From NCBI GenBank assembly GCA_021824045.1, contig JAKALR010000001.1, positions 1-62,730 of the forward strand: 62,730 bases of DNA, given 5' to 3'. Source of the DNA: a bacterium (GTDB lineage Bacteria; Patescibacteriota; Minisyncoccia; UBA6257; GWB1-50-10). The position numbers and the translations under genes are program-made. Below are positions 1 through 61,728 of this stretch, piece by piece. Numbering within the stretch: position 1 is the first letter of the stretch; each line of letters opens with the position of its first letter. The notes beneath the pieces were generated by a model. It ran no database searches. It worked only from the letters and a program-made list of their open reading frames with translations, and was not told the origin of the DNA.

Positions 1-1666
1 GGAGACCTTCATTTTTCGCCCGGAAGTTCGTGAGTTCCCTCGTGCGGCAGGCGTTCACGAGGACATCCCCCGCCTTGGCGTTGATTCCCACCACCATGCC
101 TTCATACGCCTCCATGCCCGATTCCACGAAGAGCTTTCCCCTCCCCTGGGCCGCCACGAGGCCGTAGTTGTTGGTTGTTCCCGTTTCGGTATTCACAATC
201 GAACCGTGGTCGTCGTTCTGAAGTTCTCCTTTGTATTCTTCGTATCCCAGAAAAATACTGTTCATGATGCCGGTTCCCTTGGTCGAGGTCAGAAACCGAT
301 TCCGTATGCCGATGAGGCCCCTCGTCGGAATGGCGAAGTCCATGAAGGTCGTTCCGTTGTCAACGCGCATATCTTTCATGATGCCCAGCCGCTTTCCCAG
401 CATTTCAATAATTGTGCCAGCATACGCTTCCGGAACCTCTATCGAAACGAGTTCGATCGGTTCCAATTTTTTACTGTTCTCTTCTTTGAAGATGACCTGG
501 GGTTTCGAAACTTCGATCTCATATCCCTCGCGCCTCATTTTCTCGATGAGGATCGAAAGATGCAGTTCTCCGCGTCCGGCGACCACCCACCGGTCGAATG
601 AATCGGTCGGGGTGACGGAAAGCGCCACATCGGTTTCCAATTCATGCTCCAAGCGCTCCTTGATGTTCCGCGACGTTGTATACGTTCCATCCTGGCCGGC
701 GAAGGGCGATGTGTTCACGCTGAACGTCATCTTGATGGTCGGTTCGTCGATTGTGATTGTGGGAAGCGCTACGGGGTTTTCGGCGTCGGCGATCGTCTCG
801 CCGATTGAAATGTCCGGAATGCCGGCAACGGCCACGATGTCACCGGCTTCCGCCGTATCGACGTCGATCCGCGCGAGTCCGTCGAAAAGCATAACCGCGC
901 TCAATTGTTCTTTCTTCACCTCCCCGCTCCTCGTGATGTGGGCGATAGTCGATCCTTTCTTGAGCGTTCCGGAATAGAGTCGGCCGATGGCTACCTTGCC
1001 CTTGTAATTGTCATAAACGAGATTCACCGTGAGCATTTGGGTCGGCTTTGAAGAGTCGATCGCGGGAGCGGAGATATAGGAAATAACGTTGTCGAAAATG
1101 GGCTCCACGTTCTTCATTTCGCCGAGATCCGGTTTGAGCCCCGCTTTACCCTGGACGGCCGAGGCGTAGATGACGGGGAATTCTATTTGCTCATCCGTCG
1201 CGCCGAGTTCGATGAAAAGATCGTAGGTTGCGTTCAAAACCCACGCTGGCCGGGCGTCGGGCTTATCAATTTTGTTAATGACAAGGATCACCTTATGACC
1301 CGCTTGGATCGCCTTCCGGAGGACGAATTTGGTTTGTGGCATGGGACCCTCCTTGGCGTCCACGAGGAGCAAGACGCCGTCCACCATGCGCATGATGCGT
1401 TCCACTTCTCCGCCGAAGTCGGCATGGCCGGGCGTGTCGACGATGTTAATCTTTACTCCTTTGTAGTGTACGGACGCGTTTTTTGAAAAGATGGTGATCC
1501 CCCGCTCCCGTTCGAGTTCGTTGGAATCCATAATGAGATCCTGCGACGCATCGCCCTTCATTTTGAAGTTTTCGGATTGCCTCAAGAGCGCGTCGACCAG
1601 AGTCGTTTTCCCGTGGTCAACGTGAGCAATGATGGCTATATTTCTAATGTCCTCTCTTTTTTTCAT
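1..1666 (-). CDS. typA: TypA/BipA translational GTPase (C-terminal end cut by window edge)
   Basis: Not in the ORF track because it runs off the window. Manual translation from the ATG (complement of 1664-1666) gives [48 protein letters not shown] and stays open to base 1. Confidence 0.9.
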
Positions 1667-1739
1667 ATATTTTTGAATTCGCCCGCGTTTTATTTCTTAT
1701 CGGCGACGTAACGCCTTATTGAACCAAAAAAAGCGGCAA

Positions 1740-1768
1740 TTGTCAAAAGATGTCGCATATTGTATGAT
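1740..1768 (+). promoter_or_regulatory. sigma70-like promoter TTGTCA-17-TATGAT ending 6 nt before ATG 1775
   Basis: TTGTCA at 1740-1745, 17-nt spacer, TATGAT at 1763-1768, ATG at 1775. Confidence 0.45.
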
Positions 1769-1774
1769 AAGGGT

Positions 1775-2134
1775 ATGGAAAATATAGAAAAAGGAGGAAA
1801 TATCGCAAAAGTCCTGCAAGAGGTGCCGCCGAATGTCCACGATTTGGCCGACAGCATCATGGTCGATATTCTGGCGAATGAAACTCTGGAAAAGAATATC
1901 GAAACGGGAGCGAACGAAATTCTCATCGGACAGCTCATGGAGGCGGAAATCACTAAGGTAGTGACGAGGTATGAAAATGCAGAGGGGTATGGCAAGGACT
2001 ATGTCGAGGATGCGCTCCTTCCGGAGCTCCGGAACGCCTTGGAGCATTTTGATTTTAGGAGCAGGAATGTCGACGAGGAAAAGGCAAATCGGATACGGCA
2101 AGCGGTGGCATCTTCTTTTGAGAAAAGGTCTTAG
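1775..2134 (+). CDS. hypothetical protein (119 aa from ATG 1775; track ORF begins at TTG 1760)
   Basis: Only sizeable ORF in the typA-uvrC gap and divergent from typA. No family recognised. Confidence 0.4.
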   Translation: MENIEKGGNIAKVLQEVPPNVHDLADSIMVDILANETLEKNIETGANEILIGQLMEAEITKVVTRYENAEGYGKDYVEDALLPELRNALEHFDFRSRNVDEEKANRIRQAVASSFEKRS

Positions 2135-3420
2135 GGGAGAAAATTATATCCCCTGACCTTTTTGTGGTACGCAATGGCGAAGCGATGAGCTTCGTCTCGT
2201 ACTTTTATGAGCGTCGCGAGATCGGTGAATGGCGGAATTCTTCCTATGATATCATTCCGTTTCCGTTCCGGTCCTTTCACGATGCCGACGACCGGGATGG
2301 TAACTCCCGCCTTGTTGAGGATTCCGCGGACGGCGCTCACTTGTCCTCTGCCGCCGTCAATGAGGAAAAGATCGGGTAAAGGCCATCCGCCGGCCGGCGG
2401 AGTTCTTTTGAGGCGCCGTTCGAGAATTTCCCGGAGCATGCCGAAATCGTCCGGTTGAAGAACGGTCTTGATCTTAAATTTCCGATATTCGTTTTTGTCA
2501 GGCTCGTTGTTGGTGAAGACAACCATGGAACCGACCGCCGAAGTGCCGTTGATGTTTGAAATATCATAGCCTTCGATACGGTAATTTTGCTTGTCCGCCA
2601 TAGCCTCGGCGGAGGTGGAAATCTTGTCATCGGAGATGACCGCCACGTCTTGGATGTGCCGGAGGGCGAATAATTGCCGCTTCAGCTCCCCTGCCCACTC
2701 AAAGTCCAAGGCCTTGCTTGCCGACCTCATGTCGCGCTCTATATTCTTTGTTATTCTTTCTTTTTTGCCTTCGAAGATGAGTTTGACGTTCTGTATGTTC
2801 TTCGCATACTCCTCTTTTGAGATCGCTCCGATGCATGTTCCGGGGCAAAGACCGATTTGATAGTCGAAACAAGGCCGTTGTAGGGGCCTTAGCGGAGTCG
2901 GATGAGTTGCATACGGGAATATCCTCCTGATAATCCTCAGGGCTTCGCGGATGCTTGAGGCGGAGGTGAATGGACCGTACCCCGCACCAAGCCGAACGCT
3001 GCGCTCTTCGCGCTCCCGTGCGGGGCGTTTCGTTGGGCGTTTCGTTGGTGACGGGGCGAGTCTTTTGCCTTCTTTAATATCCTTTCCTCTCACCAATAAA
3101 ACCCTGGGATATTTTTCTTTTGTTATGGCGACATAGAGGAAGCTTTTGTCGTCTTTCTCTTTGATGTTGAACGGCGGCTGGTGTTTCTTGATGAGTTTCG
3201 ATTCGAGTATCAGTGCTTCCACGCCCGTATCGGTCTTCTTAAATTCAATTTTACTTATTCCATCCACTAATCCCTCGATCCTTGCGTCGTGAGGTCTCGT
3301 GAAATAGCTCGAGACCCGTCGCTTCAAGTTGACGGCTTTGCCGATATAGAGAATCTTCCCCGCGCCGTCTTTCATGATGTAGACGCCGGGAGTTTCCGGA
3401 AGTTTTGAGTAGAGATTCAT
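2131..3420 (-). CDS. uvrC: excinuclease ABC subunit C, short form (429 aa)
   Basis: GIY-YIG N-terminus (PGVYIMKDGAGKILYIGKAVNLKRRVSSY) and endonuclease core (FLIDGGRGQV..RDEAHRFAIAYHKK). The protein ends right after this core. Confidence 0.85.
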   Translation of the reverse strand: MNLYSKLPETPGVYIMKDGAGKILYIGKAVNLKRRVSSYFTRPHDARIEGLVDGISKIEFKKTDTGVEALILESKLIKKHQPPFNIKEKDDKSFLYVAITKEKYPRVLLVRGKDIKEGKRLAPSPTKRPTKRPAREREERSVRLGAGYGPFTSASSIREALRIIRRIFPYATHPTPLRPLQRPCFDYQIGLCPGTCIGAISKEEYAKNIQNVKLIFEGKKERITKNIERDMRSASKALDFEWAGELKRQLFALRHIQDVAVISDDKISTSAEAMADKQNYRIEGYDISNINGTSAVGSMVVFTNNEPDKNEYRKFKIKTVLQPDDFGMLREILERRLKRTPPAGGWPLPDLFLIDGGRGQVSAVRGILNKAGVTIPVVGIVKGPERKRNDIIGRIPPFTDLATLIKVRDEAHRFAIAYHKKVRGYNFLP

Positions 3421-3456
3421 TACCTATAATTTCTTCTTTTCTCCAATTAAAATCAA

Positions 3457-3600
3457 GCCTGCGGAAATTTGTTTTGAGGAAGCTCTCGGAGGCAAAAAAG
3501 CTTGGTTCCGCCTTTGGCGGATTTTTCGCCGAGAGAGCAGGATGGCTTTTGCCGCTGGAGCAAAAGAACATCCGGTTCCGAGAAATAAGTTTCCGCAGGC
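3457..3600 (-). promoter_or_regulatory. conserved multi-stem intergenic element, copy 1 (candidate structured leader RNA of uvrC)
   Basis: Closing stem GCCTGCGGAAA/TTTCCGCAGGC. Inner stems are GGCAAAAAA/TTTTTCGCC, TCCGCC-TTT-GGCGGA and CTTTTGC-CGCTGGA-GCAAAAG. Homologous to 9737-9881. Confidence 0.6.
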
Positions 3601-3603
3601 GCC

Positions 3604-4464
3604 TCAGTAGTCGTTTCCCGAGATAAAATCGATAAAGCTCTGGAGCGGTTTTTTCACGGGCTTCGGGTGATGCGTCGCTCCCCTGATCTCGCGTATATTG
3701 TTCGCCGTTTCATTCACTCCCACTGCGATGATTTCTTTCGCCGCGCTGAAGTCGTCCCAATGATAGTTCAAGACCGGCGGATGGAGCATGAGGCTGGCCT
3801 CCTTGATCCTTTCTTTGGCTACCTGGTATTCCAGCGCCGAAAAAGCGTCGACGATAGTCGATTTGATGCCGGAGAGAGAGAAACGTTCGTCTTCGATGTC
3901 GGGCCACTTGCTCGAGACGTCGACGCCGATGATATATTCGGCGCCCATTCCTTTTACAATGTCCACGGGAACCGGATTCACGAAACCGCCGTCCATGAGA
4001 AGTTTTCCGTCGATTTCGACGGGTGAGAAAGCGATAGGAAGGGCCGAGCTCGCCTTCACGGCTTTTACGAGGCTGCCTTTGCTGATAACCACCTCATCGC
4101 CGTTCTTAACGTCGGTCGCGATGGCCTTGAATGGTATCTTGGTGTTTTTGATGTCTAATCCGTCGATTTTCTCCGCGAGCATTTTTTCGACGGCTTCTTC
4201 ATCCGTGAAGAGCAAACTCTTTTTTCTCCTCAAATGCTTTCGATGGAAAGAATATTTCTCGGCTATTTCGAGGAATGCCCGTTCTATGAAATCGATGTCC
4301 TCCGTCGCGGCGTAGAGGCCGCCGACAAGGGAACCCATTGAGGTGCCGGCCAGGTAGTCGATTTTAAATCCGGCCTTGAGGAGCGTTTTGATGACCCCGA
4401 TGTGGGCAAGCCCCTTGGCTCCCCCGCCCCCGAGCGCTAATCCTATGGTTTTCGGTTTATTCAT
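3604..4464 (-). CDS. patatin-like phospholipase
   Basis: GLALGGGGAKG oxyanion motif, GTSMGS (GXSXG) nucleophile elbow, downstream DGG. Confidence 0.85.
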   Translation of the reverse strand: MNKPKTIGLALGGGGAKGLAHIGVIKTLLKAGFKIDYLAGTSMGSLVGGLYAATEDIDFIERAFLEIAEKYSFHRKHLRRKKSLLFTDEEAVEKMLAEKIDGLDIKNTKIPFKAIATDVKNGDEVVISKGSLVKAVKASSALPIAFSPVEIDGKLLMDGGFVNPVPVDIVKGMGAEYIIGVDVSSKWPDIEDERFSLSGIKSTIVDAFSALEYQVAKERIKEASLMLHPPVLNYHWDDFSAAKEIIAVGVNETANNIREIRGATHHPKPVKKPLQSFIDFISGNDY

Positions 4465-4513
4465 CTCCTAAATTATAAAATATTAATTTGAAATTAGAAA
4501 TTGTCGAAAATTG

Positions 4514-4547
4514 ATTAAAAATTAAAAATTGGAAATTAAAAATTCAG
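4514..4547. repeat. AT-rich intergenic motif AAAAATTAAAAATTGGAAATTAAAAATTC, copy 1
   Basis: Near-identical strings at 7155-7181, 20387-20418 and 22341-22372, with a partial copy at 31248-31268. Always upstream of a minus-strand gene start. Confidence 0.8.
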
Positions 4548-4560
4548 AAAGTTCTCAAAA

Positions 4561-7086
4561 TTAATCCTTGAGAACTTTCTTGAGGTACTCGCCGGTGAAA
4601 CTCCCGGCTTTTTTGGCGATGATTTCCGGATTTCCCGCGGCGATCAGCCGGCCGCCTTTTTCCCCTCCCTCGGGGCCGAGATCGATTACCCAGTCGGCGG
4701 TTTTCACGACGTCCAGGTTGTGCTCGATGACGACGATGGTATTCCCCCGTTCGACGAGTTTTTGGAGGACCTCGATGAGTTTCTTGACATCGGCGAAGTG
4801 GAGACCGGTTGTCGGCTCGTCCAAAAGGTAAAGCGTGCGTCTCGTGTCGCGCTTGCCGAGTTCGGCGCCAAGTTTGATCCGCTGTGCTTCTCCGCCGGAA
4901 AGGGTTGTTGCCGACTGTCCGAGTTTCAAGTACCCGAGACCGACCTCATTCAGTATTTTCAATTTGTCCTCAATCCAGGGGATGTCGTCGAAGAACTTCG
5001 TCGCTTCCTCGATGGTCATTTCGAGGACTTCGAAAATGTTCTTTTCCTGGTACTCAACTTCCAGCGTTTCCCGGTCGAATCGCTTTCCTTTGCAGATGTC
5101 GCAGGTTACGTAGACCGTCGGCAGGAAGTGCATTTCGATCGCGATGACGCCGTGACCCTCGCAGTTCTCGCATCGCCCGCCGCGGACGTTGAAGCTGAAC
5201 CGCCCCGGCTTGTATCCCCTCACCCGCGCATCGGGCGTCGAAGCGAAGAGATCGCGGATTGGTCCCCAGGCGCCGACATACGTGGCGGGGTTCGATCTGG
5301 GCGTCCGGCCGATCGGCGATTGGTCGATGTTGATGATACGGTTCAAGTATTCGGTTCCGATGATCTCTTTGCATTGTCCCGTCTTGAAATGCGATCCGTT
5401 GAATTTGTTGGACAAGTTCTTGAAAAGGACGTCGTACACAAGCGTGCTTTTGCCTGATCCGGAAACGCCGGTGACGGCCGTGAACCGGCGGAGCGGGATA
5501 TCGACGTCGAGATTCCTCAGGTTGTTTTCCGTGGCGCCTTTTACTTTCAAGAAGTCGTGGGTTTTCGGGACAGCTCTCCGCGTTTTCGGAATCGCGATGA
5601 ATTCTTCGCCCCGGAGGTAATCCAAGGTCAACGATGTTTGCTTCTTGTCGGAAAAGACCTGGGGAATCGGGCCGTGGGCGACAACTTTCCCGCCGTGGAC
5701 GCCGGCGCCCGGGCCGATGTCGACGAGATAGTCCGACTCGCGGATGGTATCTTCATCATGTTCCACGACGATGATGGTGTTCCCGAGATCGCGGAGGTTT
5801 TTGAGCGTCTGGATGAGTTTCGCGTTGTCTTTCTGGTGGAGACCAATCGTCGGCTCGTCGAGAATGTAGAGGGCTCCCACGAGGCGCGATCCGATCTGGG
5901 AAGCCAGGCGGATCCGCTGCGACTCCCCGCCCGAAAGCGTCCCGGCTTTGCGGTCGAGTGTCAGGTATTCGAGTCCGACGTCAATCATAAATTTCAGACG
6001 ATTCTTAATCTCTTTCATCGGCACTTCGGCGATCATGAGGGAACTCTCGTTTTTCTTGAGTTTCGTTTCGAGTTTTGTGAAAAAATCGAACGAGTTCACG
6101 ATTGAAAAAGCGGTGACCTCGGCGATATTCTTGTCATCGATGAGCACATTTAAGCTTTCCGTCTTGAGCCGTTTCCCGAGGCAGGTCGGACATATTTTTT
6201 CCGACCAGGGATTTTCGACGCCGAGGCCGTGGCAGGTTTCGCAGGCGCCGAAGGGGCTGTTGAACGAAAAGAGCCGCGGTTCGATCTCGGGGAAGGAAAA
6301 GCCGTCCACGGGGCAGGTGTATTTGGCGGAAAGGGATACCTCCTTGTCGGTAATGACGGTCACGACGTCGTTGCCGTATTTCAACCCGTTTTCGATGCTC
6401 TCCGCGAGGCGCAGGCGGTTGTCCTTATTCCGGAAATCGAGGGCCGCGGGGATTCGGTCAATCACGAGATCGATCGAGTGCTGCTTATAACGGCTGAGAT
6501 CGATTCGCTCCCTGAGGCTCGCGTATTTGCCGTCGATCCGGACCTCCGAGAATCCGGCGTTCAGGAAGTCGTAGAGCATTTGGTAGTACTCTCCCTTCCT
6601 GCCGCGGACGACGGGTGCCAAGATCACCATATTCCGTTTTTCCTTCGTTTCTTTGTAAATTTGGATTGCGATGTCGACGATCTCTTCCTGTGTCATCTTC
6701 TTGATCTCGCGGCCGCAGAGCGGGCAGTGCGGGACGCCCACGCGCGCGAAGAGAACGCGGAGGTAGTCGTAGATTTCCGTGATGGTGGCGACCGTCGAGC
6801 GCGGATTCGCGCTGTGGTGTTTCTGATCGATGGAGATGGCCGGCGACAATCCTTCGATTTCATCGACGTCCGGCTTGTCGAGGCTGCCCAAAAACTGCCT
6901 GGCATAGGCCGAAAGGGATTCGATGTATCGCCGCTGTCCTTCGGCGAAGATGGTGTCGAAGGCCAACGACGATTTGCCTGACCCGGAAAGTCCCGTCATG
7001 ACGATCATTTTGTCGCGCGGGATTTCGAGGTTGATATTCTTCAAATTGTGCTCGCGGGCACCTTTGATAATTATTTTATCGGTCAT
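4561..7086 (-). CDS. uvrA: excinuclease ABC subunit A (841 aa, insertion domain absent)
   Basis: Two ABC modules ([18 protein letters not shown]; LSGGE signatures) and zinc CxxC pairs. Confidence 0.95.
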
Positions 7087-7154
7087 GGGTTTGAAATTTT
7101 TAATTTTATAAATAATTTTCTCATGTTTAAAACATTAAGAAATTAAAAGGTTTA

Positions 7155-7181
7155 TTTAAAAATTGGAAATTAAAAATTCAG
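7155..7181. repeat. AT-rich intergenic motif, copy 2
   Basis: TTTAAAAATTGGAAATTAAAAATTCAG. The flanking ~70 nt up to the uvrA start also resembles the rsmI upstream region. Confidence 0.8.
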
Positions 7182-7274
7182 TCATTGCGCATACGCGCCA
7201 ATGCCCCTCGGTTCGCTTTCCGGGAGGGTATAAGGCGAGTCTAATATAAAACCTGCCGAAGGTCAAAGTCAGAA

Positions 7275-7607
7275 CTATTTTTTCTTGCTTTGGTCTACGG
7301 TTTTTTCTTTGAATTTTTGAAGATCATCCTTCACCTTGTTTTTAACCATGTCGATGGCGGTCCGGAGGTTGATGTTCTCATTCTCGGCGAAGAGCTTTTT
7401 CCCGGGCAGCTCCAGGTCTACGGAAGCATGGAACACGTCCCCGTGCTTGTGGTGCTTGGTGGAGCGCCCCACTTCAACGAAAGCGATCACCTCCCCCTTT
7501 GTCTCGAATCGCTTGATAATCCTCCCGAGAGGCGTCAGTTTCATTTCGATATAGGTTTTAATCGACGGCGTCAAATCGAGTCCCGTGCTTTCGATGGTTA
7601 TTTTCAT
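7275..7607 (-). CDS. hpf: ribosome hibernation promoting factor (HPF/RaiA family)
   Basis: MKITIESTGLDLTPSIKTYIEMKL.. has typical short-HPF length and layout. Confidence 0.85.
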   Translation of the reverse strand: MKITIESTGLDLTPSIKTYIEMKLTPLGRIIKRFETKGEVIAFVEVGRSTKHHKHGDVFHASVDLELPGKKLFAENENINLRTAIDMVKNKVKDDLQKFKEKTVDQSKKK

Positions 7608-7610
7608 GAA

Positions 7611-7712
7611 GTAATTATACGGTAATACGGTAGTAATTTGTAGTAATATGATTGTAATACATGGTACTACGAATTACGCGAAGCAAATTACTACGTATTT
7701 CCACTGTATTAC
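7611..7712. repeat. phased GTAAT-box array (5 direct copies, then 3 inverted ATTAC)
   Basis: GTAAT at 7611, 7622, 7633, 7643 and 7654; ATTAC at 7673, 7687 and 7708. A TATAAT at 7614-7619 (minus) lies 6 nt from the hpf ATG. Confidence 0.7.
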
Positions 7713-9712
7713 TTTACTTTTTTCGAAAGTATCCTGATCTCGTCCCGAAGGATCGCCGCAAGCTCGAAATCGAGCCGTTCCGCCGCTTCTTTCATTTCTT
7801 TTTCTTTCTGCTTGAGGAGCTTCTCGAGCACCGTCTTCGATTTCGGAAGCGGCTTCGTTTCGAGGTTCAGGATATCCTCCGCGGGGAGAATGTCCTTGAT
7901 TTCTTTCACGATCGTCTTCGGCGTGATATTGTGTTTTTTATTGTACGCGACCTGGATTTTCCTCCTCCGGTCGGTTTCTTTCACCGCCCGCTCGATGGAG
8001 CCGGTGATATGGTCCGCGTAGAGGAGCACTTCGCCTTCGACGTTCCTCGCCGCCCGGCCGATGGTCTGGATGAGCGATGTTTCGCTTCGCAGGAACCCCT
8101 CCTTGTCGGCGTCCAAAATGGCGACAAGCGACACTTCCGGCAGATCAAGTCCTTCCCGAAGGAGGTTCACGCCGACCAAAACGTCGATCTCCCCTTTCCG
8201 AAGTTTCGTGAGAATCCGGATCCGGTCCAAGGTATCCACGTCGCTGTGCAAATAAGCAACTTGTAGCTTATAACTTGTACCTTGGAGCCCAAGACGTTTT
8301 CCTGAATCTTCGAGGTTGCCGAGGTATTCCGAAAGATCTTCCGCCATGCGTTTGGTAAGAGTGGTTACCAAAACCCGTTCGTTGCGGGCTACACGTTGCA
8401 CGATTCGAGGTACAAGATCTTGTATTTGGCCTTTCACGGGACGGATCGTAATTTTCGGATCGACAAGGCCGGTCGGCCGGATAATCTGCTCGACGACCTG
8501 CGAGCTTTTCTCCTTTTCGTAGGCGCCGGGCGTGGCTGACATGAAGATGGATTGATGGATCTTCTTTTTGAATTCTTCGAATCGCAAGGGTCGGTTGTCC
8601 GCTGCGGAGGGCAGTCGGAAACCGTACTCGATAAGCGTCTTTTTGCGCGAGGCGTCGCCGTGATACATGCCCTCAAGCTGCGGGATTGTCACGTGCGATT
8701 CGTCGATGACGGTCAAAAAATCATCCGGGAAATAATCCAAGAGCGTATCCGGCGGATCCCCCGCTTTCCTCCCGGAGAGCGCCCGGGAATAGTTTTCGAT
8801 GCCGTTGCAGTAGCCGACCTCGCGGATCATGGCCATGTCGGCCTTGGTTCTCCTTTCCAATCTTTCCGCTTCCAGCGGTTTTCGTTCTTTTTCGAATTTC
8901 TTGAGCTGTTTTTTGAGTTCTTCCCCGATCTCTTTCAAGGCCCGCTCCCGGTCCGGCGCTGCGGTGATGAAATGTTTCGCCGGAGCGATGTAGACCTCGT
9001 TCACGGTTTTCGTTTCCCCCGGCCTGAAGCCCTCCACGGGATTGATTTCATATATCTTTTGGATGATGCCGTTCTTGAGTTCGAGGTTGTAAATGTTTTC
9101 GATGCCCGGCGGCATGATTTCCCAGTTATCTCCGCGAACCCGGAACGTGCCCCGCGTAAGATCGGCGGTGGTCCTCGAGAATTGGAGGTTCACCAACTTT
9201 TTGATAAGCTCGTGCCGCTCCAGTTTCGTCCCCGGCTCAAGCTTGATGATATTCTCGGCGTATACCTCGGGAGCGCCGAGGCCGTAAATGCAGGAGACGG
9301 ATGCGACCACGATGACGTCCTTCCGCGTGAGAAGGGCCGCCGTCGCGGCGTGACGGAGCTTGTCGATCTCGTCGTTGATCATTGCTTCCTTGCCGATGTA
9401 GGTGTCCGACGTCGGGATGTACGCTTCGGGCTGGTAGTAGTCGTAGTACGAGACGAAATAATTCACGGAGTTATGCGGGAAAAGATCCCTGAGCTCGTTC
9501 GTGAGCTGGGCCGCCAGCGTCTTGTTGTGGGCGATGACCAAGGTCGGTTTCTGGACGCGCAGGATGACGTTCGCGATGGTGAACGTTTTGCCGCTGCCCG
9601 TAACACCCAAAAGCGTCTGGTTTTCGTAACCCCTTTCAAGGCCCTTTGTGAGTTTATCTATAGCCTGCGGCTGATCCCCGGCAGGTTTGTTTTTCGAAAT
9701 AATCTCGAACAT
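7709..9712 (-). CDS. uvrB: excinuclease ABC subunit B
   Basis: GVTGSGKTF Walker A, VIDESHVT helicase motif II, C-terminal UVR motif (AAERLDFELAAILRDEI). Confidence 0.95.
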   Translation of the reverse strand: MFEIISKNKPAGDQPQAIDKLTKGLERGYENQTLLGVTGSGKTFTIANVILRVQKPTLVIAHNKTLAAQLTNELRDLFPHNSVNYFVSYYDYYQPEAYIPTSDTYIGKEAMINDEIDKLRHAATAALLTRKDVIVVASVSCIYGLGAPEVYAENIIKLEPGTKLERHELIKKLVNLQFSRTTADLTRGTFRVRGDNWEIMPPGIENIYNLELKNGIIQKIYEINPVEGFRPGETKTVNEVYIAPAKHFITAAPDRERALKEIGEELKKQLKKFEKERKPLEAERLERRTKADMAMIREVGYCNGIENYSRALSGRKAGDPPDTLLDYFPDDFLTVIDESHVTIPQLEGMYHGDASRKKTLIEYGFRLPSAADNRPLRFEEFKKKIHQSIFMSATPGAYEKEKSSQVVEQIIRPTGLVDPKITIRPVKGQIQDLVPRIVQRVARNERVLVTTLTKRMAEDLSEYLGNLEDSGKRLGLQGTSYKLQVAYLHSDVDTLDRIRILTKLRKGEIDVLVGVNLLREGLDLPEVSLVAILDADKEGFLRSETSLIQTIGRAARNVEGEVLLYADHITGSIERAVKETDRRRKIQVAYNKKHNITPKTIVKEIKDILPAEDILNLETKPLPKSKTVLEKLLKQKEKEMKEAAERLDFELAAILRDEIRILSKKVK

Positions 9713-9736
9713 ACGTTATTTATATATTAAACGAGG

Positions 9737-9881
9737 AAAATGGGAAATGCCCGTGCGGCAGCTCCCGGAGGCGAAAAAGCTCGGTTCCGCCGAAGACGGA
9801 TTTTTCGCCGAGGGATAGCAGTGGCGGCTCCGCTCGCTGGAAGCGGAGAACGCCCGATGCCGGCAGGGCATTTCCCATTTT
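9737..9881 (-). promoter_or_regulatory. conserved multi-stem intergenic element, copy 2 (candidate structured leader RNA of uvrB)
   Basis: Closing stem AAAATGGGAAATGCCC/GGGCATTTCCCATTTT. Inner stems are GGCGAAAAA/TTTTTCGCC and CTCCGCT-CGCTGGA-AGCGGAG. Homologous to 3457-3600. Confidence 0.6.
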
Positions 9882-9890
9882 TCGAGTTGG

Positions 9891-10445
9891 TTATTCGAAG
9901 ATGAGAACGGCGGCGGCAACGACGGTTGTCCAGATGCCGTCCTTGTGCCCCTCCGCCGATTGCGTGATGTTCGTCGTCTTGAAGATTTTGCCGGATGACT
10001 TATAGACCTGTTCCCGCTCGTCCCAGGCGGCATTCGAATCGAATTCAAGGCCGAGGGTCGATGCGAGCATGGTTGCCGCGAGATCCTCGGCATACTCCCC
10101 CGCCTTTTCTTCCGTTTCGCCGAACGAGTGGTGTTCCGAAAGATAGCCGTATTGATTCGGATCGGAAGGTTGCGCGAGACCGATAGACGACACAGTCAGG
10201 CGGTTCGGTTCATTCGTGGCGTTCCGGGCCATGACGCAAAACACGACTTGGCCGGGATTCAGCAGTTTCTTGCCTTCGTCGCGCGGCACGCGCTTGCAGT
10301 TCGGCGGGAAGATTGAACTCACCATCACGAGATTGTATTCGGCGATCCCGGCGTCCCGGAGCGCCATCTCGAACGACTGCAAATATTCTTTGTGGCGGCC
10401 GACGCCCTTCGTGAAGAACATCCGCTTGGGTACCAAATTATCCAT
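9891..10445 (-). CDS. pdaD: pyruvoyl-dependent arginine decarboxylase
   Basis: Family-typical N-terminus with [11 protein letters not shown], matching the PvlArgDC/AaxB self-cleavage serine region. Confidence 0.8.
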
Positions 10446-10983
10446 GGAAGATAGTATAGAGTTTTTCGTTCTTAAAGGGAATAAGGGCGATCACGACCGC
10501 CTCGGTGTAAGATTTCGTCCGGTCGATGACATTCCCCGTGAGGATCCCGATTGCGCCGTTTTCTTGCTTCGAGTTCGTCCGATGGAAGACGATGTCGTCC
10601 GCTTCGCCGAGTTCCCTCCCTTCCTTGATGAGTTCGGCGATCCGCGGGGGCAGGAAAAAAGTTCCCGTTCTCCCCTTGCCGAAACCGTCCCCTTTCGACT
10701 TCACGACGATCCACGCTAATGCTTCCATTTCGGAATCCTTTTCTTCAACGCCGCCCTCAATGCCGACGAAGAAATCCGCGTCGGGTCGCTCCTTGGATGC
10801 GTTCTCTGCCCGGTTCTTCGCGCCGAGGAAGGTATCCGCATCAGTCATCGGCTGATCCGAAACGCCCGAAGGGACGGAAATACCTTCGATTGTGAACTCC
10901 TCGTTCGGAAACATTTTCCGGAAGCCGTCGAGTGTGGCTTTCATTTTCACCGGATTTTTCGATGCAATGACGATTTTTTTCAT
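10438..10983 (-). CDS. inosine/xanthosine triphosphatase (YjjX family NTPase)
   Basis: [35 protein letters not shown] resembles YjjX end to end. Confidence 0.75.
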
Positions 10984-27876: not shown

Positions 27877-27949
27877 GGGGTGAAATACGTCGGGCCGCCG
27901 GTGCGGCCGTGGACAGTTGCGGGACAATATCAAGCGTATGAGCGGTCAT
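27860..27949 (-). other. candidate 29-codon leader ORF overlapping the secA start
   Basis: GGAGG-8 nt-ATG. Encodes MTAHTLDIVPQLSTAAPAARRISPHVTLN. Its first codons lie in a 20-bp stem, and its stop TAA is 12-14 nt inside secA. Confidence 0.3.
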
Positions 27950-28050
27950 GGTGGTGACCTCCAATATTTTTATTGTTGTGTGAGTGCGCATCCATGACCG
28001 CTCATACGCTTCAATTGTAAAGGTGAGTGCGCAACCGTGGCCGCACCGGC
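27897..28050. repeat. nested long inverted repeats in the secA upstream region
   Basis: Inner perfect 20-bp IR at 27932-27951 / 27992-28011. Outer 12-bp IR at 27897-27908 / 28039-28050. Direct repeat GTGAGTGCGCA x2. Confidence 0.85.
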
Positions 28051-28096
28051 AGTCCGAACCGTCTGATGCTTATCCTTAAGCATAAGGGCTATTCCA

Positions 28097-28198: not shown

Positions 28199-28341
28199 AA
28201 CGGTATTATACCACGCCTTGGAGAAAATGCAAGGGGCTCTCGCGGCTCCGTGCTCCTCATCGGCGAATTTCTCTTTTGAGTAAATCCTCCAACCGTCTCG
28301 TCGGAATCAAGCCGCACAAAATATATCGAACTCGATCTCGT

Positions 28342-28377
28342 GTCCTCACTTTTTCCCATATGGGAAAAAGTGAGGAC
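28342..28377. repeat. perfect 36-bp palindrome GTCCTCACTTTTTCCCATATGGGAAAAAGTGAGGAC
   Basis: Related palindrome TCACTTTTTCCCCTAGGGGAAAAAGTGA at 37056-37083. Confidence 0.85.
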
Positions 28378-28489
28378 AGCTCGGGATTCAGACAGCAATA
28401 TTGTGGTCATTCCCTCCTCGTCATTTGGGGATTTCTGCGTCTCAAAAAAGCCTTCTTCGGGGTACGGGGCTGTGCGGACCAGGTAAGTC

Positions 28490-28536
28490 AAAAAAGTGTG
28501 CGCTCCGGGCCGCTTGGCCAAGTCTTGCCCACTTTT
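28490..28536. terminator. repeated palindromic terminator-like element, copy 1
   Basis: AAAAAAGTGTGCGCTCCGGGCCGCTTGGCCAAGTCTTGCCCACTTTTTT, directly after the DedA stop. Inverted copy at 61659-61708, partial at 55828-55870. Confidence 0.6.
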
Positions 28537-29163
28537 TTATTTTTCCTGGTCCTTGTGCATGATTCGCTGTTTTTTCCGGCGGACGATGAGCCAGTACAGG
28601 AAAGCGGCGGCGATAACGATGGCGATTACGTAGTCCATCTGCTTGAAGTAATCCTGAATAATCGTCCAGTTATTTCCCAGGAAAAACCCTATGTAGGTCA
28701 GGAACGCTGCCCACAGAAACGATCCGAAGAAGGTGAGATAGGTGAATTTCGCGATGTTCATCTTCCCGATGCCGGCCGGGAGCGATATGAACGTGCGGAT
28801 CATCGGAACAATTCTTCCGAAGAATATGGAATAGGAACCGTATTTCCTGAACCACTCGTCGGTTTTTTGGAGATGCCGCTCGGAAAGGATGATGCGGAGG
28901 AACTTGTACTTTCCCCTGATTTCCAATATCCATTCGGCGAGGAAGTAGGAAAGGAACGCGCCAGCCATGTTCCCGAGGGTTCCCATCAAGGCGACAAGCC
29001 AGAAATTCAAATTGCCCTGGAGTGCCAGAAATCCGGAGAACGGCATGATGACTTCAGATGGAATCGGAATGTTCACGCTTTCCAAAGTCATCAAGATGAA
29101 AATCCCCGGATAGCCGAGGTATCTGATGGTTTCGATGACGAGATTGGAGAGCAGCGCGAACAT
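28537..29163 (-). CDS. DedA family membrane protein
   Basis: Multi-TM protein with IPIPSEVIMPFSGFLA, typical of DedA/SNARE-associated proteins. Confidence 0.85.
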   Translation of the reverse strand: MFALLSNLVIETIRYLGYPGIFILMTLESVNIPIPSEVIMPFSGFLALQGNLNFWLVALMGTLGNMAGAFLSYFLAEWILEIRGKYKFLRIILSERHLQKTDEWFRKYGSYSIFFGRIVPMIRTFISLPAGIGKMNIAKFTYLTFFGSFLWAAFLTYIGFFLGNNWTIIQDYFKQMDYVIAIVIAAAFLYWLIVRRKKQRIMHKDQEK

Positions 29164-34727: not shown

Positions 34728-35612
34728 TTAATTTTTAAGACAGATAGCTCTGAGTTTCGCCGAGCGACTTTTGGGATTTCGGGCGATCTCTTCCCGTTCC
34801 GGTTTGATCACTTTCTTGTTTAAAAATGCTATGGTGTTCTCTTGGTGAAGCAATTTGAAGTTTTCTTTTACAATCTTGTCTTCGATTGAATGAAAGGTGA
34901 TGACGCCGAGGCGTCCTCCCGGTTTCAGGATGCCGGTCAGTTCCGCGAGGAGCTTTCTGATGTTTTCGAGTTCGCTGTTCACGTAGATTCTGATTGCCTG
35001 GAATGTTCTCGTGGCGGGGCTGATTCTCGGATCTTTGAAATGGAACGCGGAATTCACGATTTCGGAAAGTTCGTGGGCAGTCTCGATTTTCTTTTTTCGC
35101 CGCTCCTCCACGATTCGTTTCGCGATCCTCCGGGAATTCCGTTCATCGCCGTAGTGGTAGATAATGTCCGCCAGTTCGTTCTCTCGGAGGGTGTTCACCG
35201 TTTCATAGGCCGTGCGGTCGTTCCCGTCGGGGTCGTATCGCATATCGAGCAGCTCGTCTTTCATGAAACTGAATCCCCGCTTCGATTCGTCGATGTGCCA
35301 GAACGAGAACCCGAGATCCACAATCATACCGTCGGCTTTCGGGAGATTGTGCTTCGCGAGGATTGCCGGGGTGTCGGCGTAGTTCCCGTGTTTGAGGATG
35401 ATCGTATCGTTCGGCCACTTGTCCGGCAGATCGGAGTTGTGTTCGAGAATTTCCCGATCCCAGTCGATTCCCAGAAGCGTTCCTCCCGGGGTGATCCGTT
35501 TCAGGATCTCTTTCGAATGTCCCCCTTCGCCGAAGGTTCCGTCGATGAAGAATTCCCCTTCTAACGGATTCAAAATTGCTATTGCTTCTTTTAAAAGAAC
35601 CGGAGTATGCAT
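34728..35612 (-). CDS. rsmH: 16S rRNA (cytosine1402-N4)-methyltransferase
   Basis: HTPVLLKEAI..DGTFGEGGHS, full-length RsmH/MraW. Confidence 0.95.
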   Translation of the reverse strand: MHTPVLLKEAIAILNPLEGEFFIDGTFGEGGHSKEILKRITPGGTLLGIDWDREILEHNSDLPDKWPNDTIILKHGNYADTPAILAKHNLPKADGMIVDLGFSFWHIDESKRGFSFMKDELLDMRYDPDGNDRTAYETVNTLRENELADIIYHYGDERNSRRIAKRIVEERRKKKIETAHELSEIVNSAFHFKDPRISPATRTFQAIRIYVNSELENIRKLLAELTGILKPGGRLGVITFHSIEDKIVKENFKLLHQENTIAFLNKKVIKPEREEIARNPKSRSAKLRAICLKN

Positions 35613-35614
35613 TG

Positions 35615-35706
35615 CGGATATTAACGGATATTACCGGATATGCCTGATATGAACGGCGAACTATTCTCCCTATCCGTTAGTATCCGTGAGTATCCGTTCA
35701 TATCCC
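35615..35706. promoter_or_regulatory. phased GGATA-box array between mraZ and rsmH (4 direct + 4 inverted, 10-bp period)
   Basis: GGATAT at 35616, 35626 and 35636, plus TGATAT at 35645. TATCC at 35671, 35681, 35691 and 35701. Confidence 0.7.
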
Positions 35707-36129
35707 TAATTCTCCGAGTTTTTCGGCTATTTCGTCCGACGAAGATTCGGTTTTGGTTTTGTATGTCTCCCAATTCTCCGAATCCCAGATTTCTATCCTG
35801 TTGAAGAGGCCGGTCAGAACGACCTGTTTTTTGAATCCGGCGTATTTTCGGAGATATTCGGGGATTAAAATTCTCCCCTGATTATCAAAAGTTACATCCG
35901 ATGCTCCCGCGAGCATCAACCGTACGAACGCTCTTGAGTTCGATTGAGCCAATGGCAGCGACATCAATTTTTGCACGAGCGTCTCCCATTCCTTTGCGCC
36001 GAACATGAACAAGCATTTGTCCAAGCCTCTGGTGATTATGGCTCCGGCCTCTATCTTTTCCCTGAATTTGGCCGGTACCGCCACGCGACCTTTGATATCT
36101 AAGCTATGGTTGTATTCTCCCAGTATCAT
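35698..36129 (-). CDS. mraZ: transcriptional regulator MraZ
   Basis: Two SpoVT/AbrB-like halves (LDIKGRVAVPAKFR, FDNQGRILIPEYLR). Start trimmed to MILGEYNH. Confidence 0.9.
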   Translation of the reverse strand: MILGEYNHSLDIKGRVAVPAKFREKIEAGAIITRGLDKCLFMFGAKEWETLVQKLMSLPLAQSNSRAFVRLMLAGASDVTFDNQGRILIPEYLRKYAGFKKQVVLTGLFNRIEIWDSENWETYKTKTESSSDEIAEKLGELGI

Positions 36130-36223: not shown

Positions 36224-36442
36224 TTAAAAAACCGCCCCCGGGGCGGATTGCGTAGGTTCTATCTATTGTTTGAAGCGAAAGTTATCAACAGGTTGACTTT
36301 TGCTGGTTCCCCACTTTCAATTCTTTGTTTATGCTCGCCGGGTACTTCCCGCTCAGGCTGTCTCCGGGGCGACGCCCAAGTCTTAGCCTTCGCGAAAAGT
36401 ACCCGGTTCGCCTTTATTGGTTCATCCCCTCAAGTGGGTTTG
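36224..36442 (-). ncRNA. structured ~200-nt 3' region after the hydrolase gene, ending in an intrinsic terminator
   Basis: Long irregular helix (CCGGGTACTT/AAGTACCCGG, AGGCT/AGCCT, CGC/GCG). Terminator CCGCC..GGCGG plus T6 at 36224-36246. Confidence 0.4.
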
Positions 36443-37966: not shown

Positions 37967-37990
37967 ATGTTTCCCCTTTTAACGACCTTT

Positions 37991-38049
37991 CCAGGTAGGA
38001 GAAACTCAATTTCACTTCATGCATAGCTAATTGAGTTTTCACTACCTGG
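37991..38049. mobile_element. 59-nt hairpin element, short member of family 2
   Basis: CCAGGTAGGAGAAACTCAAT..ATTGAGTTTTCACTACCTGG. The arms match those of the 143-nt element at 42327-42469. Confidence 0.65.
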
Positions 38050-38056
38050 TTTTCCC

Positions 38057-40332: not shown

Positions 40333-42324
40333 CTAAATATCGATGTTCTTGGCGTAAACGGCGTTTGCCTGGATGAAGTTCTTGCGCGGTTCCACGAGCT
40401 CTCCCATCAGGACGTCAAACATCCGGTTGGCTTCAATCGCGTCATCAACGGTTATTTTCTTCATGAGGCGCGTCGCGGGATCCATGGTTGTTTCCCAAAG
40501 CTGCGAGGGGTTCATTTCGCCCAAGCCCTTGTAGCGCTGGATGTTCACGCCGTCGCCACCCATCTTTTTTATCAATTTGTCGCGTTCGTCGTCGCTGTAG
40601 GCGTACTGAAATTCTTTCCCTTTTTGAACCCGGAAAAGCGGCGGCTGGGCGATGTAGATGTAGCCGTCCTCCATGATTTTCGGAAAATACCGGTAGAAGA
40701 GCGTGAGGAGGAGCGTCCTGATGTGCGCACCATCGACGTCGGCATCGGTCATGATGACGATCTTATGGTAGCGGAGCTTCGTGATGTCAAAGTTCTCCGA
40801 TATGGCGGTTCCGAGCGCGATGACAAGCGAGCGGATTTCCTTGTTCGCGAGCATCTTATCGATTCTCGATTTTTCCACGTTCAAGATCTTTCCGCGGAGC
40901 GGGAGGATTGCCTGGAATCTCCGATCGCGCCCCTGTTTGGCGGATCCGCCTGCGGAGTCTCCCTCGACGATGAACAGTTCCGATTCCTCGGCCTTGCGGG
41001 ACGAGCAGTCGGCGAGCTTGCCGGGAAGCGTCAATCCTTCGAGCGCGCCCTTCCGGAGAACCGTGTCTTTCGCGGCCTTGGCGGCTTTCCGGGCTTTCGC
41101 GGCAATCAGGTTCTTTTCGATAATTTTCTTCGCGTCTTGGGGATGCTTCTCCAGAAATTCCTTCAGGGCTTCGTTCACGACGTATTCGACGGCGGTCCTG
41201 GCTTCCGGATTTCCCAGCCGGGCCTTGGTTTGTCCTTCGAATTGAGGTTCGTGTATTTTTATTGAAATAATCGAAACGACGCCTTCCCGGATGTCATCAC
41301 CCGTCAGATTCTCGTCCGCCTCTTTGAGGTATTCTTCTTTCCTAGCGTAATCATTCAATGTTCGCGTCATGGCGCTTCGGAGACCGGTCAAATGCATGCC
41401 GCCGTCCGACGTGTAGATGTTGTTCGCGAAGCTCAGTTCTTTGGCTTCCTGGTCGTTGATGTAGGTGATCGCGGTTTCGATCTCGATGTCCTGATACGTT
41501 TTGTGGACGTAGAAGGACTCGTCCTGTATCGACGTTTCTCCGTCGATCAGATAACTCAGGAAGGATTTCAGTCCGCCGTCGAAGTAAAAACCGTATCGAT
41601 ACGGCTCGTCTCCCCGTTCGTCCACGATCATTATCCGTACGCCCTTCGTGAGATAGGCCTGCTGCCGCAAGTGGTCGATGATCCTCTTCCGGTCATATTC
41701 TATTTTTTGGAAAATTTCGGGGTCGGCGTCGAAAATGACTTTCGTCCCGGTATGCGTCGATTTACCGTTTTTCCTGACGGCGAATTCCGGCTTGCCGCGT
41801 TTATATTCCTGGAAATAGACGGTGTTATCGCGGGAAACCTCGACGCGGAGCCATGTTGAGAGCGCGTTCACGACGCTGACGCCCACGCCGTGGAGCCCGC
41901 CGGAGACTTTGTAGGATTCGCCGCCGAATTTTCCTCCGGCATGAAGCGTGGTCAGAACCGTTTCCAGAGCCGACTTCTTGGTTTGCTGGTGGATGTCGAC
42001 CGGGATGCCGCGGCCGTCGTCGGTTACCGCGATCCGGTTGTCCTTCAGGAGTTCGATGGTTATATTCTTGGCATACCCGCCCATCGCTTCGTCGATGGAG
42101 TTGTCGACAACCTCCCAGACCAAATGGTGGAGGCCGTCGACTCCCGTGGAGCCGATATACATGCCGGGGCGTTTCCTGACCGGCTCAAGGCCCTCCAGGA
42201 CGTAAATGTCCTTGGCGCCGTAGGATGGCTCGGATTTTGCCTGCGATTTGACCTCTTTTTTGGGTTCTTGCTTCGGTTCCTTTTTGGGTTCCTGGGTTTT
42301 CTGGTTTATTGGTATTTTTACCAT
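40333..42324 (-). CDS. gyrB: DNA gyrase subunit B
   Basis: GLHHLVWEVVDNSIDE, EGDSAGGSAKQGRDR, PLRGKILNVEK. Carries a K/E/P-rich N-terminal extension. Confidence 0.95.
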   Translation of the reverse strand: MVKIPINQKTQEPKKEPKQEPKKEVKSQAKSEPSYGAKDIYVLEGLEPVRKRPGMYIGSTGVDGLHHLVWEVVDNSIDEAMGGYAKNITIELLKDNRIAVTDDGRGIPVDIHQQTKKSALETVLTTLHAGGKFGGESYKVSGGLHGVGVSVVNALSTWLRVEVSRDNTVYFQEYKRGKPEFAVRKNGKSTHTGTKVIFDADPEIFQKIEYDRKRIIDHLRQQAYLTKGVRIMIVDERGDEPYRYGFYFDGGLKSFLSYLIDGETSIQDESFYVHKTYQDIEIETAITYINDQEAKELSFANNIYTSDGGMHLTGLRSAMTRTLNDYARKEEYLKEADENLTGDDIREGVVSIISIKIHEPQFEGQTKARLGNPEARTAVEYVVNEALKEFLEKHPQDAKKIIEKNLIAAKARKAAKAAKDTVLRKGALEGLTLPGKLADCSSRKAEESELFIVEGDSAGGSAKQGRDRRFQAILPLRGKILNVEKSRIDKMLANKEIRSLVIALGTAISENFDITKLRYHKIVIMTDADVDGAHIRTLLLTLFYRYFPKIMEDGYIYIAQPPLFRVQKGKEFQYAYSDDERDKLIKKMGGDGVNIQRYKGLGEMNPSQLWETTMDPATRLMKKITVDDAIEANRMFDVLMGELVEPRKNFIQANAVYAKNIDI

Positions 42325-42326
42325 AT

Positions 42327-42469
42327 CCGGTTAGTAGAAACTCGATTGCGGGTCAATATGATTCACTGAATCGAGTCTGTTGCATATGACCTTTTTATGA
42401 ACTTTATCATCACTACTTATTCCTTTGCATTGACCCGACGGTGAATCTCATCGAGTTTTCACTACCGGG
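42327..42469. mobile_element. 143-nt hairpin element family 2 inserted at the gyrB start codon
   Basis: Ends CCGGTTAGTAGAAACTCGAT..ATCGAGTTTTCACTACCGGG, flanked by CATAT (42322-42326, containing the gyrB ATG) and CATAT (42470-42474). Confidence 0.75.
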
Positions 42470-42530
42470 CATATCAAGTCAACAAAAAATAAGCTTGTGG
42501 CCTCTTTATAGCTTTATTTTACCATACTCT

Positions 42531-57605: not shown

Positions 57606-57689
57606 TGCCCAGGAGAGGATTCGAACCTCCACGTCCTTAACGGACAGCAGCACCTCAAGCTGTAGCGTCTGCCATTTCGCCACCTGGGC
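57606..57689 (-). tRNA. tRNA-Leu(GAG), class II
   Basis: GCCCAGG/CCTGGGC acceptor, anticodon loop TTGAGGT, long variable arm GTCC-GTTA-GGAC, T-arm GGAGG-TTCGAAT-CCTCT. Confidence 0.9.
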
Positions 57690-58751: not shown

Positions 58752-58799
58752 TGGATTTCATAGTAACAATTACCTATCTAAAAGTCAAAATTTTAACAA

Positions 58800-58942
58800 G
58801 AAACCGTCTTATTTCGAGCGAATCATTCGGAGACCGAGCGGGCACGGCTTCCGCCCTTGAGGCGGAAGAGCGAGGTCGAGGATAAGCGCGGGCCGCCGGC
58901 TGGGGCGGGCCGACGCGGGTTCGCTCGAAATAAGACGGTTTC
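58800..58942. repeat. perfect 23-bp inverted repeat enclosing a 97-nt GC-rich spacer
   Basis: GAAACCGTCTTATTTCGAGCGAA at 58800-58822 pairs with TTCGCTCGAAATAAGACGGTTTC at 58920-58942. Inner hairpin CTTCCGCC..GGCGGAAG. Confidence 0.85.
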
Positions 58943-58948
58943 TCATCC

Positions 58949-61550: not shown

Positions 61551-61727
61551 ATTTCGAACGAACGAACCAGTCATATCGAAGATATCAGGACAGCATTCTT
61601 CCGGGGCGAAAGCGCTACTCTACTGCATGACTCCTTTTAAGGGGAGTTCGGTGAGACGAAAAAGTGGGTAAAAGACTTGGCCTAAGCGGCCCGGAGCGCA
61701 CACTTTTTCGGCTTGCCGAGCTCCCCC
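61551..61727 (-). other. partial third copy of the tRNA-linked module plus a stem enclosing a terminator-like palindrome
   Basis: Contains ..CGCCCCGGAAGAATGCTGTCCTGATA (Ile-like D-stem/anticodon fragment). Stem GGGGAGCTCGG (61716-61726) pairs with CCGAACTCCCC (61641-61651). Palindrome at 61659-61708. Confidence 0.5.
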
Positions 61728-61728
61728 A

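Follow-up and report, generated by a model that had tools for sequence, protein, structure and literature searches.

In proteobacteria, extragenic palindromes of the REP/BIME type lie past stop codons, where they may make the upstream mRNA more stable or bring transcription to an end. The REPs are simple hairpins of 20-40 nt, numbering in the hundreds and associated with RAYT transposases. Another kind of behaviour is represented by the Rickettsia palindromic elements (RPEs), found between genes and as in-frame insertions that do not destroy the housekeeping genes of reduced genomes (PMC10969869). The pneumococcal BOX, RUP and SPRITE elements cluster and insert into one another, and SPRITE carries a terminator-like hairpin (PMC10969869). 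We found no small palindromic insertion elements described in the literature on Patescibacteria/CPR.

The window analyzed in this study (the whole stretch of 62,730 nt) comes from a Patescibacteria (Paceibacteria-like) genome. It encodes a UvrB protein that recurs unchanged in two NCBI MAGs and one ENA assembly, and whose nearest relatives are annotated as Patescibacteria, Jorgensenbacteria, Liptonbacteria or Paceibacterota. The 178-nt spacer between pdaD and uvrB is filled by a self-complementary sequence, designated element A copy 2. The initial annotation had presented it as the second copy of a multi-stem element preceding two nucleotide excision repair (NER) genes, its position being either regulatory or a coincidence. 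To our knowledge, LexA is often absent in this phylum, and the notion that a structured RNA controls uvrB and uvrC was a tempting one; the analyses described here replace it with a scattered insertion element. We consider it probable (roughly 0.7) that copy 2 is a member of a family of insertion modules in Patescibacteria, each non-coding, self-complementary, ~150 nt long and similar to MITEs and RPEs, and that it is not an NER sensor. The position of copy 2 beside repair genes looks like an accident of insertion. Coincidence is the favored half of the original alternative, in view of the unrelated genetic contexts of the family, the occurrence of its members in both orientations, the turnover of spacer contents, a sister-family copy located within lepA, and counts of wobble pairs that lend no support to an RNA of the uvrB strand.

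The genes and modules of the locus are listed in Table 1. The gene cluster uvrB-HPF-uvrA-patatin-uvrC (window 2131-9712) is conserved in L004, L006, L008, L059-L061 and L036 (loci of other genomes are designated by L numbers). The NER genes of this cluster enclose a ribosome hibernation gene and a gene for a patatin-like lipase. The encoded UvrC is short (395-429 aa vs. about 600 aa), and UvrA has 840 aa.

Table 1. Coordinates of genes, modules and module parts (positions in the window, unless another locus is named).
Feature	Position	Strand	Remarks
uvrC	2131-3420	minus	
Element A copy 1	3457..3600	minus	between patatin-like gene and uvrC; inverted repeat I8
Patatin-like gene	3604-4464	minus	
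uvrA	4561-7086	minus	
HPF/S30AE gene	7275-7607	minus	
uvrB	7709-9712	minus	downstream neighbor of copy 2; NCBIfam UvrB, 978 bits
TATAAA	9719..9724	minus	candidate -10 box of uvrB, 6 nt before ATG
Element A copy 2	9737..9882	minus	entire three-way-junction module (9737-9881, 145 nt, in the initial annotation); model R1 match 9751-9868
P1 3' arm, TGCCGCACGGGCATTTCCCATTTT	9737..9760	minus	
P3, sequence-conserved core	9761..9819	minus	lower stem, GGCGAAAAA/TTTTTCGCC stem, apical hairpin, bulge ACCGAGC
P2 hairpin	9823..9855	minus	stem GGGCG/CGCC + CTCCGCT/AGCGGAG; conserved loop TCCAGCG
P1 5' arm, AAAAATGGGAAATGCCCTGCCGGCA	9858..9882	minus	outer part locus-specific; inner GGCA pairs with TGCC
pdaD	9891-10445	minus	upstream neighbor of copy 2; NCBIfam PdaD, 215 bits
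NTPase gene	10438-10983	minus	
D copy	36330-36412		
A-prime	58797..58944	minus	between RluD-like gene and rplS; inverted repeat I3; R2 120 bits
D copies, L004	7880-7960, 9975-10050		
D copy, L059	6860-6930		
D copy, L063	11460-11545		
D copy, L067	8100-8185		

Copy 2 is situated as had been claimed, 9 nt past the pdaD stop codon and 24 nt ahead of the uvrB ATG on the minus strand. Its homology to copy 1 was borne out by three observations: a 44-nt core pattern has exactly two matches in the window, namely copies 1 and 2 (0.00 expected); both are recognized by covariance model R1, copy 2 with 113.5 bits and copy 1 with 124.8 bits; and the sequences of the closing stem and of P2 are unlike in the two copies, yet their pairing is kept. 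The closing stem of copy 2 is formed by inverted repeat I1 (arms 9730-9760 and 9858-9888). The multi-stem fold was confirmed as a predicted three-way junction, with energies of -80 kcal/mol (z = -6.75) on the minus strand and -86 kcal/mol (z = -5.96) on the plus strand, a stability matched by none of 200 shuffled sequences. The C.A mismatch reported in the apical hairpin of P3 on the plus strand is indeed a U.G pair on the minus strand (TCCGTC-TTC-GGCGGA), and no copy precedes uvrA. Only the count of two copies had to be revised, since a third, divergent family member (A-prime in Table 1) was found elsewhere in the window.

In total, 17 distinct A copies were aligned to one architecture, with a hand-drawn structure. 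The long closing stem, P1, shows conservation only in the ~4 bp nearest the junction. The P2 stem, including that of copy 2, covaries across the family beneath a conserved loop (UCCAGCG or UCCGGCG), and P3 is composed of a lower stem, the conserved stem GGCGAAAAA/UUUUUCGCC, a covarying apical hairpin, and the bulge AACCRAGC. Pairing is maintained in 91% of cells, compared to 79% in shuffles, and falls to 44-51% in controls with slid partners. Double changes were observed in 23 of the 39 pairs, a level reached by none of 500 shuffles. A search of Rfam 15, conducted at the gathering score over the entire window and at E <= 10 over the element region, identified no family for element A: the only matches at the gathering score were tRNAs, plus one group I intron at 5013-5220 of L021, a related locus, and the relaxed search produced only noise.

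Element A was identified in about 15 other MAGs or contigs, in 1-3 copies per genome. With a 21-base degenerate core pattern, 13 loci were detected in ~9 Patescibacteria MAGs (one genome per species scanned). A second core pattern applied to JGI metagenomes retrieved 37 loci, among which were 8 true members (5 distinct sequences), the other matches being due to chance in unrelated DNA. Viral contigs contained no match for either core. The genes flanking A are unrelated to repair and include rpsJ and rplC (S10 operon), ftsZ and RNR (ribonucleotide reductase), hisS and NRAMP, and ftsX and dus; A was also found upstream of hrcA-grpE-dnaK and adjoining a gene for a Xer-type recombinase. Of the sites between co-directional genes, 5 have A in the sense orientation and 8 in antisense. 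An unrelated lineage (L034/L036) carries A just downstream of uvrC, in antisense orientation, at the end of a uvrB-uvrA-x-uvrC cluster. By our own rough estimate, the probability of such adjacency arising by chance is ~3-9%; there may therefore be a weak association of A with uvr clusters, of which L034/L036 is the only residual hint.

A sister family, A-prime, was recognized through weaker R1 matches. It shares the three-way junction and orientation of A, and has a different P3 sequence. In the consensus fold of 12 A-prime copies, 32 of the 40 pairs covary. Model R2, built for A-prime, also recognizes A copies in the same orientation, with scores of 40-57 bits. The A-prime copy of the window has a perfect closing stem of 24 bp and begins a few nucleotides past the stop codon of the RluD-like gene. 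The two families are also physically combined: in several MAGs, A is flanked by 'extra motifs' which turned out to be an A-prime read backwards and split in two, A being nested, in inverted orientation, inside the A-prime apical hairpin. One MAG carries an identical 243-nt unit of this kind at L015 and L017, flanked by unrelated inverted repeats (49 nt at 98% and 14 nt at 100% complementarity), and a 170-nt version at a third locus. In L016 (2745-2790), a 35-nt hairpin (CTTCGC...GCGAAG) interrupts an A-prime flank between two copies of GCGGGC, which looks like a very small hairpin insertion with target duplication.

An A-prime copy was also identified within a coding sequence. The lepA gene of L006 (2312-4240) contains this module at 2885-3031 (R1 38 bits, R2 108 bits), inserted in frame together with its own 22-bp stem and adding 41 aa (TRHLFERSVSEAERARLPGGQSEAESQAGERDAGERNPVFSKT) to a variable linker between LepA domains; the rest of the protein is 73% identical to LepA of the window. 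Model searches of about 0.5 Mb revealed no further intragenic copy, and a protein search with the insert peptide, limited by its word index, returned no other candidates for in-frame insertion. A 28-aa insert in lepA of L004 (1620-1710) was rejected as an element, being a low-complexity simple tandem repeat, (GAATTTC)n + (AAAATT)n. The same gene contains a second repeat tract (2050-2110), located in the linker that carries A-prime in L006, and this linker seems tolerant of insertions.

The turnover of the modules was followed in a set of eight genomes, including that of the window, with UvrB of the relatives being 76-88% identical to UvrB of the window. In the pdaD-uvrB spacer, A is seen in the window, A-prime occupies L009 and L060, the core of another palindromic family (D, described below) occupies L004 and L059, and no module is present in L061, L006 and L008. 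Even among close relatives with 82-88% identity in UvrB, this spacer is occupied by A-prime, by another palindromic element, or by none. The uvrB-upstream A copy is missing from all seven relatives examined; copy 2 has thus landed, or been retained, between pdaD and uvrB in this species alone, which is unlike the behavior of a conserved regulator. In the patatin-uvrC spacer, A is found in the window, L004 and L009, and A-prime in L006, L059, L060 and L061, while in L008 the genes overlap and there is no module. The uvrB-HPF spacer carries A in L006 only, D in L004, another palindrome in the window, and nothing in L059, L060 and L061. Presence/absence polymorphism was therefore seen at four orthologous sites, i.e., these three spacers and lepA. 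Modules have come and gone in the intergenic spacers, or replaced one another there, in either orientation and usually just past a stop codon, at a distance of 3-17 nt.

Copies that have been inherited vertically change in a characteristic manner. Between copy 1 of the window and its counterpart in L004 there are 4 double changes in P1, 3 in P2, and ~3 changes in the ~60-nt core. Similarly, the D element upstream of mraZ in the window and L067 differs by 4 double changes in its 11-bp stem and 1 change in its 39-nt core. Unless the copies homogenize one another, such near-invariant cores with compensatory stem changes look like the outcome of purifying selection on a function and not like decaying selfish DNA, and in this respect they speak against the insertion reading. 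Possible readings of the core-and-stem pattern are a core function under selection, homogenization, insertion into hairpin tips, or template-switch repair of palindromes. In the patatin-uvrC spacer, the outer stem and the T-run (up to TTTTTT) were judged by eye to be orthologous between A-bearing and A-prime-bearing genomes, which gives the impression of a core exchange within a stem that stayed in place. At pdaD-uvrB the stems of A and A-prime are unrelated. At a further site, x-mraZ, one arm resembles the terminator arm of a neighboring genome at 16 of 20 positions; this hint of an inverted duplication of the flank upon insertion is weak, because L067 shows that D is old and orthologous there. 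The combination of a frozen core with a free-running stem might reflect a novel mode of spread or of maintenance.

When compared with the systems described above, the modules resemble RPEs in their behavior: they are self-complementary, ~100-150 bp long, divided into several related families, located between genes and also in frame, and without a known transposase. The parallel is provided by A-prime in lepA of L006, where the host protein remains intact. We propose an analogy of behavior only, and it concerns another phylum; moreover, there is a single in-frame case, which comes from A-prime and not from A, the core is branched and enclosed in locus-specific outer stems, and the elements show no significant enrichment of open reading frames. 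In copies 1 and 2, 5 of the 6 frames lack a stop codon, but across the family the mean number of open frames is 3.1 for A and 2.4 for A-prime vs. 2.2 in dinucleotide shuffles, so selection for translatability was not convincing.

With MITEs and the BOX, RUP and SPRITE elements the modules have in common a small size, the lack of coding capacity, scattered positions, stable predicted folds of the transcripts, and nesting (in this case A in A-prime), and with SPRITE also a terminator-like hairpin, here followed by T5 on one strand. Several scattered copies per genome, as expected of MITEs, are present in the window (two A and one A-prime) and in the MAG with three near-identical copies. Copy numbers per genome are nevertheless low, and no parent insertion sequence was seen. 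The only IS in the loci examined belongs to the IS3 family and is unrelated to the elements; its transposase gene lies just upstream of uvrB in L006 (6388-7451). A search for conserved terminal inverted repeats gave a negative result, as the outer P1 arms of copies 1 and 2 differ fully, and only inner pairs of the GGAA/TTCC type are shared between the P1 arms of the copies. Possible 2-nt 'TC' repeats were noticed at some copies only, with uncertain element boundaries, and neither a transposase nor a target-site duplication was identified for the modules in the loci examined. As the terminal repeats are not conserved and no target duplication or parent IS was found, we group the modules with RPEs, MITEs and BOX/RUP/SPRITE by behavior and not as members of a named family. 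The modules resemble REP/BIME sequences in being palindromes past stop codons and in forming mosaic combinations, but each is a ~110-nt three-way junction present in few copies. Finally, they share with riboswitch-like leaders a multi-stem fold, compensatory changes, conserved loops and junctions, and intergenic sites upstream of genes. They differ from such leaders in having no conserved gene association or orientation and no Rfam family, in their variable presence between sister genomes, and in a likely position upstream of the promoter.

The last point concerns the start of uvrB. The only -10-like box (TATAAA), noted by the initial annotation, is present downstream of the closing stem, and a scan for consensus sigma-70 sequences revealed no two-hexamer promoter at uvrB, upstream of the element or on either strand at copy 2. 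The uvrB start has no Shine-Dalgarno sequence, and this, together with the location of TATAAA 6 nt from the ATG, suggests that the mRNA is probably leaderless and transcribed from its own promoter. Should TATAAA be the -10 box, transcription would begin downstream of the element, which would then be outside any uvrB leader. At rplS, a promoter (TTGACT-17-TACTAT) is situated 8 nt before the ATG, downstream of the A-prime copy. Altogether, promoter-like -10 boxes occur 5-8 nt before starts devoid of Shine-Dalgarno sequences at these two genes (window 58760-58788 and 9713-9724) and upstream of HPF in L004, L060 and L006, which suggests that leaderless mRNAs are common in this organism.

Pairing mismatches were counted to assign the modules to a strand. 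On the uvr-sense strand, the fixed pairs of family A include 19 A.C and 13 G.U, and A-prime has ~20 A.C vs. 8 G.U on the gene strand; single mismatches in A folds computed without GU pairs are 18 A.C vs. 1 G.U, and relative to the direction of flanking transcription the count is split 12 vs. 8. Since the three ways of counting were inconsistent and weak, the strand assignment was abandoned. Selection for an RNA of the uvrB strand finds no support in these counts, and the slight opposite bias (p ~0.03 when pooled, by our own estimate and with non-independent copies) is too weak to be used. In copy 2, AUUUUCCUCGUUU comes after P1 on the gene strand; the canonical arrangement, a hairpin with a run of T5 behind it, is formed by the apical hairpin of P3 on the plus strand and was called terminator-like. 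As a general terminator signature, the T-run after P1 gave a mixed result: U-richness at this position varies among the copies and the run is missing in several of them, e.g., L006 and L024.

These data bear on three other explanations of copy 2. Two copies in gene orientation directly before uvrB and uvrC, with strong covariation, are what would be expected of a cis-regulatory leader RNA (a riboswitch or attenuator, possibly damage-responsive) that is transcribed with both genes and controls NER; the uvrC-upstream copy is, moreover, kept in three related genomes, and A adjoins uvrC in another lineage. However, in that lineage the element follows uvrC and is antisense, most members of the family neighbor unrelated genes, 8 of 13 in antisense, and the copy preceding uvrB is absent from every relative. 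The -10-like box downstream of the element and the excess of A.C over G.U on the gene strand argue in the same direction, and given its distribution, orientation and turnover we regard an NER leader as very improbable and reject it. A free-standing small ncRNA gene, or an RNA derived from a 3'-UTR, acting in trans or binding a protein and perhaps encoded on the strand opposite uvrB, would account for P3 and loops that are near-invariant across distant MAGs while the stems covary, and for cores conserved in vertically inherited copies; the mild excess of would-be G.U positions on the opposite strand, and the conserved hairpin followed there by U5, resembling a terminator, also agree with it. 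Yet the strand asymmetry is weak, and the sigma-70 scan was negative on both strands. We judge this explanation unlikely as well, for close relatives differ in how many copies they carry and where, the copy inside lepA is translated, and copies are nested in each other in opposite orientation.

The remaining alternative is that the host selects the module as an elaborated intrinsic terminator or 3'-end protector, with the locus-specific P1 terminating the upstream gene and the loop insert, the A core, being merely tolerated or helpful. The start of the copies so close behind stop codons speaks for it, as do the seemingly orthologous outer stem and T-run at patatin-uvrC with their apparently swapped core, and the plain terminator hairpins at equivalent sites in L008 and L063; such a role would be independent of orientation and is compatible with the mixed orientations. 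It is more difficult to reconcile with the copies that have no T-run after P1, with the lepA insertion, which brought its own 22-bp stem into coding DNA, with the unrelated stems of A and A-prime at pdaD-uvrB, and with the A copy inside the S10 operon, between rpsJ and rplC. As an explanation of copy 2 it appears doubtful, though less so than an ncRNA gene.

Under the preferred reading of copy 2 as an insertion module, copy 2 would belong, if anything, to the 3' end of the NTPase-pdaD transcript. The module consists of a long, locus-variable P1, a covarying P2 beneath a conserved loop, and a P3 conserved in sequence. Read-through from the NTPase-pdaD transcript would form the -80 kcal/mol fold as a 3'-terminal hairpin, with an A-run before it and a U-rich tail after it, and such a hairpin would end or shield the pdaD transcript, keeping it apart from uvrB. 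The latter would be transcribed as a leaderless mRNA from a promoter of its own immediately before the ATG. This terminator/insulator role of copy 2, proposed from the sequence and its predicted fold, would be effective in either orientation, in accordance with the mixed orientations, although the U-rich tail is inconsistent among copies; an element that insulates a uvrB gene equipped with its own promoter at the ATG would not be an NER-specific sensor. The copies would presumably spread through a folded single-stranded intermediate or by recombination between copies. Whatever their mode of spread, elements of this kind inflate predictions of intergenic 'structured RNA' in tiny CPR genomes, and the family should be masked before riboswitch mining. 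As the lepA case shows, such elements can change a protein without shifting its frame, and they may supply terminators or 3'-end protectors.

The second palindromic family, D, has a nearly invariant core of 39 nt (GAAGGCTAAGACTTGGGCGTCGCCCCGGAGACAGCCTGA). Each copy (Table 1) is enclosed in a different stem of 11-14 bp and flanked by GCGAR ... CGAGC, and in L004 D is found on both sides of uvrB, in opposite orientations. The 'E' elements of the window (28470-28558 and 61635-61732) have a core, GCGCTCCGGGCCGCTTRGGCCAAGTCTT, related to that of D and placed inside AAAAAGTG/CACTTTTT stems; at 28.5 kb, one arm of the copy extends over the final codons, including the stop, of a gene for a VTT-domain protein. 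It is possible, although by our estimate well short of an even chance, that A, A-prime, D and E form a single 'Russian-doll' class of hairpins, with a core kept near-invariant through long vertical descent in a long, nearly perfect, locus-specific stem, in which new copies enter hairpin tips (those of terminators and the apical loops of other elements included) or duplicate the flank in inverted form, and cores are swapped within a stem that is kept. Such a class would imply a mechanism of mobility or maintenance unlike that of classical MITEs, and its cores might be tips recognized by proteins or RNAs at the 3' ends of transcripts.

The genome is unusually rich in long hairpins. Further long intergenic inverted repeats were recorded in the window at 7615-7715, 27885-28062, 28341-28378, 35605-35715, 37985-38055 and 42320-42475; they include a perfect 20-bp stem nested in a 19-bp stem and a perfect 38-nt palindrome, and two of them have similar arms (CCRGTWAGKAGAAACTC...). 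Other potentially mobile sequences were noticed in the course of the analysis. In L067, a gyrB gene (657-3953) contains an intein (Intein_splicing Pfam match). An ORF of 235 aa in the window (57692-58399, minus strand), free-standing between rplS and a tRNA gene (57606-57689), has a weak match to the LAGLIDADG_3 domain (23 bits vs. a cut-off of 22.5) and may encode a homing endonuclease.
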